Shown: piece after piece, positions 402 through 5,373 of the stretch
Position numbering within the stretch: the stretch's first letter is position 1
Layout: every line of letters begins with the position of its first letter
IMG/VR virus record: IMGVR_UViG_2531839486_000011
DNA: 5,433 nucleotides
Source: a virus
Lineage: Duplodnaviria; Heunggongvirae; Uroviricota; Caudoviricetes
Direction: 5' to 3' (one strand)
The notes under the pieces: generated by a model
Told to the model about the DNA's origin: nothing
The model's database searches: none
The model's input: the letters and a program-made list of their open reading frames with translations, nothing else
Made by a program: the position numbers and the translations under genes

Positions 402-557
402 TTACTCCTCAGGTTCGTAAGCTGTGAAGACAGCGACCTCCGTCTGGCCGGTTCGGATTCGTACCTCGCAGAGGTCTTTCCTCGTTACCAGTGCCGTCAC
501 TATGACGGTTAAACAGATGACGATCAGGGCGATTAACATCGCCTTTTGCTGCTTCAT
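402..557 (-). CDS. hokD: Hok/Gef family type I toxin, 51 aa (small membrane-depolarising peptide)
   Basis: The internal ATG at 557-555 of the 70-aa track ORF gives MKQQKAMLIALIVICLTVIVTALVTRKDLCEVRIRTGQTEVAVFTAYEPEE: one hydrophobic helix followed by the conserved TRKDLCE...EVAVF...AYE core of Hok/Gef/RelF. SD AAGGAG lies 9 nt upstream. Assignment to the hokD/relF subtype rather than hokC is from memory and less certain than the family call. Confidence 0.85.
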   Translation of the reverse strand: MKQQKAMLIALIVICLTVIVTALVTRKDLCEVRIRTGQTEVAVFTAYEPEE

Positions 558-614
558 AGCCTGCTTCTCCTTGCCTTTCGGCACGTAAGAGGCTAACCTA
601 GATTTGCCGTTCAT
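402..614 (-). CDS. Mok-like regulatory reading frame (in-frame N-terminal extension of hok, 70 aa)
   Basis: The track ORF 402..614 shares frame and stop with hok and starts 57 nt upstream (ATG at 614-612, SD-like TGAGG upstream). Chromosomal hok loci have such a mok frame that couples hok translation. Whether it is translated here cannot be judged from sequence. Confidence 0.45.
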   Translation of the reverse strand: MNGKSRLASYVPKGKEKQAMKQQKAMLIALIVICLTVIVTALVTRKDLCEVRIRTGQTEVAVFTAYEPEE

Positions 615-660
615 AGATTGAGCCTCAGATTAATGTTAAGCGTCTTGCAGGACGCGTAAT
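606..660 (+). ncRNA. Putative Sok-like antisense RNA opposite the mok start (coordinates approximate, placed by analogy)
   Basis: Hok loci carry a short antisense RNA complementary to the mok translation-initiation region. A possible + strand promoter is TTGCCT (571-576), 17-bp spacer, TAACCT (594-599), which would start transcription near 606. This is positional inference only. Confidence 0.2.
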
Positions 661-1070
661 GTTAACTGGGGCTTTTCTCTATCTGCCTTTGGTGTTCATG
701 CCTGAGACAGATAGCCTCAAGCACCCGCAGCCATTCTACTTAACTCCCGTTACCTCGCCAATATAAAATCAATCAGAAAGGCGATCCATAAGAACAACAG
801 CAAGACAATAAATTGCCATTACAGCTGCAATAGCCAGCGCACATTTGAGAACCAGCACGACAACCTCCTGTATTGGACGTACACCAGTCCTGATAAATAT
901 GAGGCTGTCTCATCATTGATGAGATACAACTATTGGGTATAGTTTCTGTGATTTTGTTCTGTAGAAATGGAACACAACAACCAGTCACCACCAGCACTTC
1001 TTTAAATACGCCAAGTCCGACGCAAGCTAACCTTCTAGTCCGCTTTGAGCGAAAAGCAGACTGTCACGCG

Positions 1071-1181: not shown

Positions 1182-1991
1182 ATGACGAAAATTAGTGAAC
1201 GATGGAAGCACAATGGCATTACTGAAGGTTATTGCAATATTTGTGGGAAATATGGCTTTCTCACAAAAGATCATGTTCCTCCAAAGTGCGCCATAACCTT
1301 AGGCCCTGTTTTGCAGAAAACAGTTAGCGAATTTTTTGGTATTCAGGAACCAGTTAAACCATTAAATGCTAAAAATGGCTCTTATTTCAGAACCATTTGC
1401 AGCCACTGTAACAATAAGGTATTAGGTGGGCTCGATGTTGCAATTGAAAATGTAACAAAGTCCTTTAAAGAACAGTTAAGTCGATATATGAATGGTATGA
1501 ATGTATATCCATTCATTAGAATACCTTTTGATAGCATATCTTTCACTAAGGCTATGATTGGGCACGTGCTATCAGCAACTTCAGTTGAAGATTGTAAAAA
1601 AGAACCCGTAGATAGCCCCTTCTATACACCTTTAAAGGATTATGTTTTGGGTAAAAATTCAAGTTTTGAGGAAACTCATGATATTTACTACTGGTTTTAC
1701 CCACACAGAATGCACATATCCGCTCAAAGTGTAGCATTTATGAACGAAGGACATGTGGCATTTATTTGTGCTTTACATTTTTTTCCTATCGGTTTTATTA
1801 TCACAATGAAAAATGAAGGAACATACCCTGCCCACTCTACAAAATTAGAACTTGAAGATAAATTCCTTACATTTAATATGACCTCTATAAATTATGAGTA
1901 TACGACATTTCCATTTGTAAATCTTAAGGGAAACCAAATGTATGCGATAAGCAACGGTCATACTTGTGTGAGTTATCCAATAATTAAGTGA
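1182..1991 (+). CDS. Hypothetical 269-aa protein with N-terminal HNH-like (His-Me finger, zinc-ribbon) nuclease motif; AT-rich, probably horizontally acquired
   Basis: Long ORF with a good RBS. The protein has C18-x2-C21, D31-H32 (TKDHVPPK), Asn candidates at 62/65 and C73-x2-C76-N77 (CSHCNN), the order expected for a zinc-stabilised HNH fold, although the DH to second CxxC spacing (40 aa) is longer than typical. The C-terminal ~190 aa are unrecognised. Hand-sampled G+C is about 35 percent against about 50-55 percent in flanking genes (not computed over the whole gene). Confidence 0.75.
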   Translation: MTKISERWKHNGITEGYCNICGKYGFLTKDHVPPKCAITLGPVLQKTVSEFFGIQEPVKPLNAKNGSYFRTICSHCNNKVLGGLDVAIENVTKSFKEQLSRYMNGMNVYPFIRIPFDSISFTKAMIGHVLSATSVEDCKKEPVDSPFYTPLKDYVLGKNSSFEETHDIYYWFYPHRMHISAQSVAFMNEGHVAFICALHFFPIGFIITMKNEGTYPAHSTKLELEDKFLTFNMTSINYEYTTFPFVNLKGNQMYAISNGHTCVSYPIIK

Positions 1992-2137: not shown

Positions 2138-2560
2138 TCACTTCAATAAATACCGAACATCACCCTGATAAAACGACAATATGCGCTGCATAACTTCACT
2201 CTTCCGGCACTCGCGACAGATTATGTTCTGACGCCTGTCGTAGCGACGTATTTCTCCGTCAGGTAATGACCAGATAAGGTCCGGATCAACCGCAGATGGT
2301 TTCTTCAGCTTTGCCCTTGAGAGCTTTTTACGGGCATTTTGCCAGTCCTTACGCGCCTGTTCAGACGGGAATAACCCGTAACCAGAGTTGTATACATCGC
2401 CGCTGGCAACCAGTTCTCTTGCGAGAACGCTCATCAGATATCTTGTCGCACCTGTCTTGACTTCCAGTTGCCGTAACGTCTCACGCCCACTCTGGCGTAC
2501 GAGTTCAACAACCTGTCCTTTAATTTTTTCCCGCTCTTCTTGTGTAAAAACTTTTGCCAC
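2138..2560 (-). CDS. Hypothetical phage protein, 140 aa, in the position of the second replication gene (helicase-loader slot); GTG start
   Basis: Track ORF 2138..2560. The start codon is GTG (reverse complement of 2558-2560) preceded by a strong SD AGGAGG 4 nt upstream. It is basic and has a C-terminal CRECRK motif. No family recognised; it does not resemble lambda P or DnaC-type loaders. Confidence 0.7.
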   Translation of the reverse strand: MAKVFTQEEREKIKGQVVELVRQSGRETLRQLEVKTGATRYLMSVLARELVASGDVYNSGYGLFPSEQARKDWQNARKKLSRAKLKKPSAVDPDLIWSLPDGEIRRYDRRQNIICRECRKSEVMQRILSFYQGDVRYLLK

Positions 2561-2600: not shown

Positions 2601-3671
2601 TTACCCCCTGAAGCCCGGCGGAATTTCGTTATCCGGTTCAGAAATATGATTCACACAACGCTGGTTGTTCGTGCCGCTTACCGGGAGCAACCAGGGGTTC
2701 TCAAAATTCCGGTCCGGTCCAAAAAACGTCGTCGCTCGCTGAACAAATTCCGTTCCCGTTTTCCCGGTAGCCGCCAAGTATCTTGCGTAACGCCTCACGC
2801 CATCCAGCATGGCTTCTGGTGGCACCCCCTCGCGTAATCTGGCCTTCCAGGCACTGAAAGCGGATTTCTTCGGGTTTGCTCCGGCACGCAACGGGTACTC
2901 CCGCCAGACCTGTTCGAACACATCCGGATAATCCACTCGTCCCACAGACTGCCCGGTGTTTTCCGGGACTACCCGATCGGCTTCCCGCTGAATGGCGGAA
3001 TCGGCTTCGGGCTGCTGCAGTTGGTGTGATTGCTCCGGCCTTGCGGTCATCACCTGCTGCACAGCGCCCGAATCGGCTTTCAGCGCATACGCTGAATCGG
3101 CTTCCGGTGTCGTGCCTGCTGGCTGACCAAGATTGACGGTCTGAACATCCCCTGCCTGGTTCGTGGCGTTTTTTACGCCATGGACCATAGTGTTTTGATC
3201 TTCTTGATCTGTATCTTTATCTGTATCTTTATCTGTCGTGACTCGTCGTGACATGTGCGTGACATTTCGTGACGCGCCGTGACAATCGCCATTTTGTTCC
3301 CGCTTTCTTTCCCTCTCTCGCTGCGCCCTCTTGCGCTCTGCAGGAGATTTTGCGGTTTGCGAAATATTGCCGTTGTCCTCTTTAAGCACCTGGCGTTTTT
3401 CCCATCCAGTGATTAAATCACCATCAAGTACCCGCCCCTGCATCGTCTGCAAAATTGAATCAATTACCTCTTCTGTCACGTCGAGCGCACTTGCCAAATC
3501 TTCTGTCGTGACATCAATGTGACCTCGCGTGACATTTCGTGACGCGCTCACCAGGAGGTGGATATACACTGCCATCACTGTTGCAATTGGCTGCCCTGAC
3601 ACTCTGGCAATTGTTCGCCACTTAGGGTCATTTGGCATGTCATGCCATAATCTGAGCCAGGCGTTAGCCAT
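2601..3671 (-). CDS. Putative phage replication initiator / replisome organiser (O-like position), about 356 aa
   Basis: Track ORF 2601..3677 begins at a GTG. The ATG two codons in (3671-3669) has a better SD (GAGG about 5 nt upstream), so I place the start at 3671. It is the third gene of the cro-side operon. The coding sequence contains iteron-like phased repeats and encodes a low-complexity acidic linker (TDKDTDKDTDQEDQ) between two domains, as in lambda O with ori inside the gene. Domain identity itself was not recognised with certainty. Confidence 0.7.
   Translation of the reverse strand: MANAWLRLWHDMPNDPKWRTIARVSGQPIATVMAVYIHLLVSASRNVTRGHIDVTTEDLASALDVTEEVIDSILQTMQGRVLDGDLITGWEKRQVLKEDNGNISQTAKSPAERKRAQRERERKREQNGDCHGASRNVTHMSRRVTTDKDTDKDTDQEDQNTMVHGVKNATNQAGDVQTVNLGQPAGTTPEADSAYALKADSGAVQQVMTARPEQSHQLQQPEADSAIQREADRVVPENTGQSVGRVDYPDVFEQVWREYPLRAGANPKKSAFSAWKARLREGVPPEAMLDGVRRYARYLAATGKTGTEFVQRATTFFGPDRNFENPWLLPVSGTNNQRCVNHISEPDNEIPPGFRG
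3207..3284. repeat. Repeat cluster 1 inside the replication gene: 12-bp tandem ATCTGTATCTTT (about 2.5 copies, 3207-3236) followed by five CGTGAC motifs at 10-11 bp phasing (3237, 3247, 3258, 3268, 3278)
   Basis: Read directly from the sequence. Spacings of 10, 11, 10 and 10 bp equal one helical turn. Candidate origin iterons. Confidence 0.5.
3475..3547. repeat. Repeat cluster 2 inside the replication gene: (C/T)GTGAC motifs at 3507, 3518, 3528, 3538 (10-11 bp phasing) plus an inverted copy GTCACG at 3475-3480
   Basis: Read directly from the sequence. Includes a 21-bp exact direct repeat of cluster 1: GCGTGACATTTCGTGACGCGC at 3257-3277 and 3527-3547. Confidence 0.5.
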
Positions 3672-3741
3672 ACTCACCTCTTCTGATACCGAATCTTTTA
3701 CTCACGAGTTGCCGGAAGCGATTCGATATGGCTATTATCAC

Positions 3742-4167
3742 TCAATGCACTGCCACAGCATTTCCTGCCGGGCCACCACGGTTCATCTGATTGAAACCGG
3801 CGATTGCCACTGCGACAAAATCATCAGCGTCTCTCACCAGTCGCTCCCGCGTCTCCACCAGCTCCCGAAAATAAGCTGAACTGTGGCTGCGCATTCTGGC
3901 CACCAGCAAAGGTGGCATTGCCTTTTCGATCGCTGGTAACAACGCCTGAATTTTTTCAACTGCATCAGGGGTGTCTTTCTCTACCCAGCGGAAAATTTTC
4001 TGGGTATTGCGAGCCAGGGCTTCCGGATGGCTGTCGTCATACAGTTCTGGGAACGTCATACCCAGTTCAAAATAAGCCCTGGTTATTTCAGCTGCCGGAA
4101 CTTTTTCACCGTCCGGATGCGCCCAGGCATTCATCGCCATGCGGATGTGTTCATGCTTGATTTTCAT
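3742..4167 (-). CDS. ydaT: YdaT-like protein (CII-position protein / toxic component of the Rac-type YdaS-YdaT module), 141 aa
   Basis: Track ORF with ATG at 4167-4165 and SD AGGAG 8 nt upstream. The N-terminus MKIKHEHIR and the size match my recollection of Rac YdaT. It is the second gene after the Cro-like gene and overlaps its stop by 17 nt. Confidence 0.7.
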   Translation of the reverse strand: MKIKHEHIRMAMNAWAHPDGEKVPAAEITRAYFELGMTFPELYDDSHPEALARNTQKIFRWVEKDTPDAVEKIQALLPAIEKAMPPLLVARMRSHSSAYFRELVETRERLVRDADDFVAVAIAGFNQMNRGGPAGNAVAVH

Positions 4168-4432
4168 GAATCAAGCTCCTAGAAAGTGGTTGTGTTAACG
4201 TTTTGGTATCTTCCAGCTCGGGCCAAATATTCATCCAATCAAAAGGCCTTAGTTGCTGACGTGTAACTTCACCATTACTGGCTCGCTCAATAAGGACACA
4301 TAACGATGCCCCTAACACTTGACCTTTACTCAATGCCTTTCTTAGATAACCGATGCTGGTACCACACTCGCATGCAAACATACGCTGTTCATCTGACGAA
4401 AGAGAATTGAGAAATATTCTTAATTCTTCCAT
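4151..4432 (-). CDS. ydaS: Cro/YdaS-like small DNA-binding protein, 93 aa
   Basis: Track ORF with ATG at 4432-4430 and SD AAGGAG 6 nt upstream. It is the first gene of the operon divergent from the repressor. The motif ...IERASNGEVTRQQLRPFDW...WPEL resembles the YdaS/Cro-like family (recalled, not searched). Confidence 0.7.
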   Translation of the reverse strand: MEELRIFLNSLSSDEQRMFACECGTSIGYLRKALSKGQVLGASLCVLIERASNGEVTRQQLRPFDWMNIWPELEDTKTLTQPLSRSLIHENQA

Positions 4433-4532: not shown

Positions 4533-4952
4533 ATGGACAAATATGAATTTAGACGACAGCAACTCATCAAAATTCGTGATGAGAAATGCGATGGTAAAGC
4601 GGTTAACGTGGCCAGAAAGATCGGGCGCGAGCCTTCTTATGTATCAAGAATGTTGTACCCAGAGGGGAAAAAGGGAAAAAAACGGATCGCTGATGATATG
4701 GTGGAGATTATCGAAGAGTCCTTTGGGTTACCCCGGGGATGGATGGATGGTATCGTTTCATCATCAACGAACACAGCCTCCAGTTATGAAACAAGGGTTC
4801 TAACGCCACGACAACGTATTTTTTTAGATCTCTTAGACGAACTGCCAGAAAGTGAAGCGGATAACTTATTAAAAACTCTTGAAGAGAAAAAACAGTATTA
4901 CAATATGATCTACGAAGAAATCCGTAAAAAGAAAGCACAAAACGCATCATAG
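4533..4952 (+). CDS. Prophage repressor-like HTH DNA-binding protein, 139 aa (cI/RacR functional position)
   Basis: Track ORF with ATG at 4533 and no SD (consistent with a leaderless transcript). Probable helix-turn-helix around GKAVNVARKIGREPSYVSRML. It is divergent from the Cro-like operon. No peptidase S24 motif was recognised. Confidence 0.7.
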   Translation: MDKYEFRRQQLIKIRDEKCDGKAVNVARKIGREPSYVSRMLYPEGKKGKKRIADDMVEIIEESFGLPRGWMDGIVSSSTNTASSYETRVLTPRQRIFLDLLDELPESEADNLLKTLEEKKQYYNMIYEEIRKKKAQNAS

Positions 4953-5035: not shown

Positions 5036-5217
5036 TCTTTTCATACCAACCCACCCCGCCCCACAGAATGCAGGGCAATACTTCGAGTTACCAGGCAGTG
5101 GTCAGGGGTTAAGTAGCCAGCCCGAGGCGTAAGAACATGACGGCAGGGTTCAACTTTAATAACTATGCAGCAGGTTTTTGTTCCGCTACCCCGGCGTTAA
5201 GGGGAAATGAGGTCAGC

Positions 5218-5373
5218 ATGGATACTATCGATCTTGGCAACAGCGAATCTCTGGTATGTGGCGTGTTCCCCAACCAGGACGGTACGTTCACCGCGATGAC
5301 GTATACCAAAAGCAAAACGTTTAAAACCGAAAATGGTGCCCGTCGCTGGCTGGAAAGAAACTCAGGTGAGTGA
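5218..5373 (+). CDS. Small prophage protein, 51 aa, YdfA/YdaF-like (DUF1391-like); alternative upstream start at 5137 gives 78 aa
   Basis: The track ORF is 5137..5373. The internal ATG at 5218 has a better SD (GAGGT 5-6 nt upstream) and gives MDTIDLGNSESLVCGVFPNQDGTFTAMTYTKSKTFKTENGARRWLERNSGE, the size and sequence type I recall for the small proteins next to Rac/Qin repressors. Confidence 0.6.
   Translation: MDTIDLGNSESLVCGVFPNQDGTFTAMTYTKSKTFKTENGARRWLERNSGE

Follow-up and report, generated by a model that had tools for sequence, protein, structure and literature searches.

Two iteron arrays inside an initiator gene as the probable replication origin of a Qin-like Escherichia coli prophage

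What function is served by two clusters of short, helically phased repeats that lie inside the coding sequence of a prophage replication gene? This question is raised by a 5433-base stretch of viral DNA (IMG/VR record IMGVR_UViG_2531839486_000011; the whole of this stretch is called here the window), taken from a Qin-like lambdoid prophage of Escherichia coli, whose early region it represents. All the repeats are held by a gene of 358 amino acids (AA) with a GTG start (2601-3677, minus strand), placed after the cro-like and YdaT/CII-like genes, that is, in the position of gene O of the lambdoid early operon. The original prediction took them for the origin iterons or initiator binding sites of the prophage by analogy with lambda, and considered their distribution in two separate clusters unusual and potentially suited to DNA looping. 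Comparative evidence supports the first of these ideas, and we consider it very likely that the GTCACG repeats are binding sites of the winged-helix N-terminal domain of the encoded initiator and together form the replication origin of the prophage. In our best reading the array located in the linker codons (cluster D) and the AT-rich tract beside it would constitute the core origin, i.e. iterons plus unwinding element, and the upstream array (cluster U) would serve as a conserved, auxiliary set of initiator sites.

Both arrays are read here on the gene (minus) strand as GTCACG, corresponding to CGTGAC on the plus strand. This hexamer occurs 10 times in the window versus 1.9 copies expected, and none of 200 shuffled sequences (0/200) reached 10. 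Cluster D (3237-3283, minus strand) contains the five predicted copies, starting at 3237, 3247, 3258, 3268 and 3278 (plus strand numbering), arranged head-to-tail in a single orientation with spacings of 10/11/10/10 bp and encoding AA 132-147. Cluster U (3507-3543, minus strand) lies ~260 bp upstream of D, 130 nt into the initiator gene, and encodes AA 45-57 (ASRNVTRGHIDVT); its four iterons are spaced by 11/10/10 bp. Four CGTGAC motifs had been proposed for this cluster, three of which are exact (GTCACG at 3507, 3528 and 3538), the fourth being the variant GTCACA at 3518-3523 (TGTGAC on the plus strand), one base off with the 5-base core GTCAC intact on the gene strand. A single inverted iteron, also exact, is found on the plus strand at 3475-3480, about 30 bp downstream of U in the direction of the gene, overlapping codons D66-V67-T68. 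The iteron unit has ~10 bp, with an asymmetric core GTCACG(C) of 6-7 bp repeated head-to-tail at a mean spacing of 10.1-10.3 bp; Tandem Repeats Finder independently reported arrays with periods of 10 bp (3235-3284) and 12 bp (3202-3236). As predicted, all of the motifs listed here fall inside the O-position gene and the peptide ASRNVT appears twice in its product, within SASRNVTRGH (AA 44-53) and GASRNVTHMS (AA 134-143). Phage Tritos, with a complete genome of 46 kb, has no GTCACG clusters other than U and D.

The predicted 21-bp direct repeat GCGTGACATTTCGTGACGCGC is exact at 3257-3277 (in D) and 3527-3547 (in U), with 0 such repeats expected. The identity between the arrays covers two cores and the spacer between them, though spacers otherwise vary freely; it suggests a recent sequence exchange between U and D, by gene conversion or slippage, which is a possible route to keep the core types of both arrays in step.

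Are these motifs conserved beyond what the encoded protein demands? One genome per bacterial species was scanned, resulting in 66 related loci from Gamma-, Beta- and Alphaproteobacteria plus a few other phyla. GTCAC arrays were present at the same two positions of the gene in 25 of the 66 loci, at protein identities of 56-99%, each array having 3-6 copies, U around nt 116-186 and D mostly around nt 370-470 of the gene; the genera carrying them include Escherichia, Serratia, Rahnella, Pseudomonas, Bordetella, Acidovorax, Stenotrophomonas and Chromobacterium. The layout in two clusters is thus not an oddity of this prophage; it is a conserved trait of the family as a whole, which comprises many prophages and has not been described so far.

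Codons were aligned for 21 loci, taken from different genera, and the answer was clearly positive. Codons overlapping a core were identical in 86-87% of the pairs encoding the same residue, compared to 41-44% elsewhere (Mann-Whitney p = 4e-6). In U, the codons of V49 (GTC, 21/21), T50 (ACG, 21/21), G52 (GGT, 21/21) and S46 (TCA, 20/21) are fixed, while the rest of the same genes uses GTC, ACG, GGT and TCA at only 16%, 20%, 20% and 15%, respectively. Third positions located in spacers vary freely, R51, whose third base belongs to a spacer, using four different codons. The inverted copy was present in 20 of the 25 GTCAC-type loci, the V67 codon being GTG with 99% synonymous identity. Because of the 10-bp spacing each array presents its cores in every one of the three frames, and the dipeptides VT, (C/G)H and SR therefore recur along them. 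In the related loci D comprises 3-7 copies with variable spacers and peptides, and closer to the window the same is seen at a finer scale: in two E. coli relatives sharing the N-terminal half and differing in the C-terminal half the GTCACG cores of D are invariant and the spacers differ; in one of the E. coli relatives a +1/-1 indel pair turns SRNVTH into SRICHD with every core kept; and the U array of E. coli relatives has a 21-bp insertion that amounts to exactly two extra iterons. Taken together, the evidence points to selection acting on the DNA motif and not on the peptide.

If a single protein bound both arrays, their sequences should be matched, and in most loci they are. Distant relatives without GTCAC display, in the same two places and also spaced by 10-11 bp, arrays of CGAACGC, GTAACGC, GGAACGC or CTACG. 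The dominant core agrees between U and D in 44 of the 47 loci in which both were detected (25 GTCAC, 14 CGAAC and 5 GTAAC), and D was found without a detectable U in seven loci. The peptide of the U region tracks the iteron type, ASRNVTRGH of the GTCAC-type proteins being replaced in the CGAAC-type by ASNATERGRT, the peptide obtained when a CGAACGC array is translated in its three frames. Such agreement of core types would be expected of one protein that recognizes both arrays by their sequence; the specificity of that protein would then have diverged between subfamilies.

Of note, in a sub-clade from Erwinia, Pantoea and Enterobacter (loci L029, L025 and L027; nt 120-240) close initiators use either GTCAC or GTAAC iterons, with both core types mixed in L025. 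The same sub-clade shows an extra iteron inside the codons of the putative recognition helix, which reads ERHV (CGT CAC GTT) in company of GTCAC and ERNV or SNV (CGT/AGT AAC GTT) in company of GTAAC, so that the residue encoded is H with the former and N with the latter.

The gene strand directly after D reads ACAGATAAAGATACAGATAAAGATACAGATCAAGAAGATCAA (3195-3236, minus strand), an AT-rich, purine-rich tract of the form (GATAAAGATACA)n which encodes DKDTDKDTDQEDQ and is the G+C minimum of the initiator gene (32.5%). A (GATAAA/GATACA/GATAAG)n tract with at least two GATA[AC]AG/GATAAGA units comes directly after the last iteron in 45 of 62 related loci, irrespective of iteron type, and the tract of the window is a candidate DNA-unwinding element. 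A reading of (GATAAA)n as a DnaA-trio-like element was set aside, as only every second triplet would fit the motif; on a simpler view GAT-AAA is the most AT-rich coding solution for an open, hydrophilic peptide.

Past the AT-rich tract there is an inverted repeat (3157-3187, not assigned to either strand) able to form a hairpin of 13 pairs on the plus strand, including G-T pairs; folded as DNA, this strand gave -10.9 kcal/mol (z = -5.5). The iteron and tract region folded as a single strand had structure at chance level (z = -0.6). The related loci show an enrichment of G+C-rich inverted repeats, unrelated in sequence, at the hairpin position, the mean perfect stem having 6.0 bp versus 5.0 bp in control windows (p = 3e-7). 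The loop TCNCTACGNTC is common to four loci (L006, at 2940-2966, L023, L057 and L064; ~450 nt into the gene), in which the stems differ in a compensating way, with paired synonymous changes such as CCT/GTA in L006 versus CCC/GTG in L023. The inverted repeat may be a third element of the origin, for instance a signal for single-strand initiation or primosome assembly. D, tract and hairpin are all located within the linker-coding region, and their order, iterons, AT-rich tract and inverted repeat, is that of an origin.

What kind of protein is encoded around these sites? The 358-AA product is NCBI WP_001262357.1, annotated either as 'hypothetical protein' or as 'phage replisome organizer', and it matches phrog_3729, 'replication initiation protein', over AA 3-358 (E 5.5e-258). 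With this match, and with an AT-rich tract following D as in lambda, the proposed lambda-like layout at the O position was supported; homology of the initiator to lambda O was not, since no Pfam match to Phage_rep_O was obtained even at E <= 10, the only ones being weak matches to HTH_Crp_2 and PF09681. The latter scored 14.5 bits against a gathering cut-off of 23.3 (E 0.04-0.13), spanning positions 1-104 or 1-118 of the 121 of the profile, and PHROG families named 'replisome organizer' matched at E 4e-6 and 2e-4; judging by these profiles the protein would be, at best, a remote relative of the PF09681 'replisome organizer' winged-helix class. Neither Pfam nor NCBIfam thus offered a usable family for the initiator.

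Structure was analyzed on AlphaFold2 models. The N-terminal domain, presumed to bind the iterons (AA 1-95; codons at 3393-3677, minus strand), is modeled confidently over AA 5-95 as a DnaD-type winged helix, with three helices, a helix-turn-helix (58-65 and 69-79) and a beta wing (80-90), the fold being close to that of the N-terminal winged helix of DnaD. The codons of U specify the loop that joins helix 31-47 to helix 58-65 (helix 1 and helix 2), and those of the inverted copy the turn preceding helix 69-79. A basic helix (AA 112-128) is followed by the linker (AA 130-246), with a predicted local distance difference test score (pLDDT) of ~30, which contains the stretches coded by D, the tract and the hairpin and is, according to the model, probably disordered. 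The helical C-terminal domain (AA 252-319; codons at 2721-2924, minus strand; pLDDT 85-93) precedes a low-confidence tail; this domain matches PHROG families of DnaD-like helicase loaders and primosomal proteins, and the same C-module was found behind other DNA-binding N-modules, e.g. PF13730.

The tail ends in a DnaT-like segment (AA 335-358, ending in QRCVNHISEPDNEIPPGFRG; codons plus stop at 2601-2675, minus strand). These last 24 residues (GTNNQRCVNHISEPDNEIPPGFRG) are closely similar to the final residues of primosomal protein I, i.e. DnaT, of E. coli (PDB 6aep and 2ru8, E 0.003; also 9zbt). Membership in the DnaT family was rejected, as NCBIfam PRK02854 (DnaT) scored 19 bits versus a cut-off of 201 and aligned with the last 24 residues only (model positions 156-179), leaving a common tail motif; this similarity suggests that the phage initiator mimics DnaT to reach the helicase-loading machinery of the host.

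Comparison by megablast with 5426 complete E. coli genomes split the gene into two blocks, 2601-3196 and 3214-3677 of the window, and in the alignment with the E. coli relatives the homology of the N-module stops a few bases past the AT-rich tract. N-domain, U, D and tract are therefore transmitted jointly, and it is the C-module that is exchanged. Inheritance of the N-terminal domain and the origin as one block is a known pattern for the origin-specificity modules of lambdoid phages. Relatives with a different C-module have a 'replication protein P' gene next downstream; neither a P-like nor a DnaC-like loader gene was found downstream of the initiator gene in the window prophage. In some metagenomic relatives (P0036, P0058, P0073, P0097, P0099 and P0103) the N-domain is fused directly to an HNH endonuclease (PF01844/PF14279), which replaces linker and C-domain. 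Many database entries (P0001-P0020, P0123, P0130 and others) are labeled 'partial' and end or start at about AA 150-200; the module junction or the repeat region inside the gene seems to be where assemblies and gene calls break off.

From these data the following mechanism can be proposed. The winged-helix domain would bind each ~10-bp unit and, given the length of the units and their mean spacing, several initiators would be loaded on one face of the helix, where they could distort the DNA and open the adjoining AT-rich tract. The exchangeable C-module would then recruit the host DnaB helicase; since no P- or DnaC-like gene follows, the DnaT-like tail is a candidate link to the host primosome in this prophage, and in the E. 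coli relatives with another C-module DnaB would be recruited via the P-like partner. The simplest role for U would be that of a second loading array for the same protein. Through looping or a higher local concentration of initiator it may assist the assembly of the origin complex in cis, or alternatively it may throttle transcription or replication when the initiator is abundant; the data favour neither a helper nor a limiting role.

Several points weigh against the assignment of the arrays as an origin read by the encoded initiator. The conservation described proves some selected function at the DNA level, which need not be replication initiation. The iterons are short, with a unit of ~10 bp and a core of 6-7 bp, and lack the dyad symmetry of those of lambda. 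The GTCAC-type and CGAAC-type proteins cannot be told apart by any residue in the putative recognition helix or wing. The distance between U and D is 249-270 bp in 22 of 25 loci (249, 258, 267 and 270 bp were seen), does not keep a strict helical register and is set mainly by the intervening protein domain; it therefore gives no independent support to looping. Finally, in the open-access library searched we found no publication on these repeats or this family, and the papers on the 'Eru' replication regions of Shiga toxin phages do not describe the repeats either.

The first of these points leaves room for the arrays to be operators, whose occupation by the initiator or by another regulator would block or autoregulate early rightward transcription, with replication starting elsewhere. 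The place of U, in a transcribed region 130 nt into the gene and accompanied by an inverted copy, would suit such a role, and a weak promoter-like match overlaps D on the plus strand; this match, however, covers 9 of 12 positions and is no commoner than in shuffled sequences. Moreover, in nearly every family member D is joined to the AT-rich tract and the inverted repeat, which is the anatomy of an origin and not of an operator, 3-7 head-to-tail sites are typical of origins, and the complete Tritos genome, with no other iteron cluster, offers no alternative origin candidate with this motif. We regard the operator explanation as unlikely.

It could also be argued that only D is functional and that U is a by-product, either a duplicate matched to D through gene conversion or a sequence tolerated in an unconstrained loop of the protein. 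The seven loci with D and no detectable U, as well as the exact 21-bp segment shared by both arrays and consistent with sequence exchange, speak for this view. U is nevertheless kept in at least 44 loci across classes of Proteobacteria, with frozen synonymous sites such as V49 and with its inverted partner in most GTCAC-type loci, and a passive by-product would decay at protein identities of 50-70%; we thus find a D-only origin very unlikely. The idea that the repeats stem from a repeated peptide or from codon bias, the DNA itself having no function, to which the double ASRNVT and the conservation of ASRNVTRGH in many homologues lend some appeal, is refuted and has a negligible chance of being right, as codons that are rare elsewhere in the genes (15-20%) are fixed in 20-21 of 21 loci, compensating indels keep the cores, these are read in three frames and stay constant in D where the peptide varies, and subfamilies with other cores carry a matching other peptide (ASNATERGRT).

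With the arrays taken as sites for the initiator, one may ask which residues read the core. Positions 48, 49, 50 and 53 of the loop, all encoded by U, are the only positions of the folded domain that separate GTCAC-type from CGAAC-type proteins. It is conceivable, if improbable, that these loop residues help to read the core, so that binding site and reading head share the same nucleotides. If true, homogenisation of the repeats would shift the specificity of origin and initiator together, a built-in route to new replication specificities.

The gene studied here is 100% identical to the copy of a prophage integrated beside ompW in a human faecal E. coli isolate, and the induced phages vB_EcoS-689R5, Tritos and Evi show 98-99% identity to the window, the Tritos gene being 98.6% identical. 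Upstream of the initiator gene, in the direction of its transcription, are found the YdaT/CII-like (3742-4167, minus strand) and Cro/YdaS-like (4151-4432, minus strand) genes, followed by a divergent DicA-like repressor gene (4533-4952, plus strand) and a DUF1391 gene (5137-5373, plus strand); on the other side lies a DUF977/Ren-like gene (2138-2560, minus strand). The name oriJ, that of the K-12 Rac prophage, was considered and dropped, as the O-position gene of Rac, ydaU, encodes a DUF1376 protein of a different family. A Hok/Gef family open reading frame (ORF), hokD (402-614, minus strand), and its sok RNA (RF01794, 552-726, 110 bits) make up a hok/sok type I toxin-antitoxin locus that is complete within the window (402-726, minus strand). 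Between the hok and replication genes, on the opposite strand, there is an AT-rich ORF of 269 AA with several CxxC motifs (1182-1991, plus strand), of unknown function, for which no Pfam or NCBIfam match was obtained and PHROG 21495 (unknown function) was the sole match. Tritos has a different, larger gene at this place, and the slot looks like one for moron or defence-type cargo.

The gene, or part of it, is present in 2699 of the 5426 complete E. coli genomes, in 1647 of them over at least 80% of its length; it is mostly annotated as 'hypothetical protein', and has relatives in prophages of many proteobacterial genera. A defined origin would provide a testable minimal replicon and a marker for classing the replication and incompatibility modules of lambdoid and Shiga toxin (Stx)-related prophages, and would explain why assemblies and gene calls break inside the gene, the 'partial' entries ending at the module junction. 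The family is also a clean natural case in which DNA-binding sites impose constraints on the coding of a protein in three frames, and the matched changes of iteron and peptide are natural specificity variants for studying the coevolution of initiator and origin.

How does this arrangement compare with known systems? Two clusters of one initiator repeat per replicon are found in satellite phage P4 (ori and crr), P1 (incA) and R6K, one being the origin and the other a cis helper or a negative control element acting by looping or handcuffing. The P4 clusters are intergenic and kilobases apart, and iteron plasmids have iterons of 17-22 bp, whereas the clusters of the window are 260 bp apart and are both translated as part of the initiator.

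The iterons of the lambda O family have 18-19 bp, are dyad-symmetric and are bound by dimers; those of the window, of ~10 bp, are asymmetric and show no internal inverted symmetry. As the protein is also without sequence relationship to lambda O, membership in the O family was rejected on both homology and iteron symmetry. Two further differences are the second array, 260 bp upstream in the codons of the DNA-binding domain, and the lack of a P-like gene downstream. The anatomical features of a lambda-type origin, the closest known kind together with the origins of other lambdoid and Stx phages, were found all the same: an array of sites in the coding sequence of the initiator (5 + 4 + 1 cores), a flanking AT-rich region, and location in the linker together with co-inheritance with the N-domain. 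In lambda the origin is located in gene O, with four iterons and a 39-bp high-AT region (PMC6022878). The putative origin of the window and that of lambda are both placed inside the initiator gene, in the part coding for the region between domains, and flanked on one side by an AT-rich unwinding region; in both, the N-terminal DNA-binding half and the origin form one specificity module with an exchangeable C-terminal half, and the gene has the same place in the early rightward operon.

A second parallel is the Bacillus phage SPP1, whose oriL has AB boxes and an AT-rich DNA-unwinding element embedded in the replisome organizer gene 38, encoding G38P, and whose second G38P-binding region, oriR, is far off in the genome (PMC5737612). 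The window shares with it the repeats and adjacent AT-rich element inside the organizer gene, the weak PF09681 match and the DnaD-like winged helix, some copies of the gene being named 'phage replisome organizer' by NCBI; in contrast, the PF09681 score is below cut-off, the repeat sequences are unrelated, and both arrays lie in the gene with none elsewhere, as judged from the Tritos genome. An origin inside the initiator gene is of a well known kind, represented by lambda and SPP1; what is distinct here is the combination of short asymmetric iterons, a second array in the codons of the DNA-binding domain throughout the family, a conserved tract of hexamer repeats, and several iteron specificities within one family.

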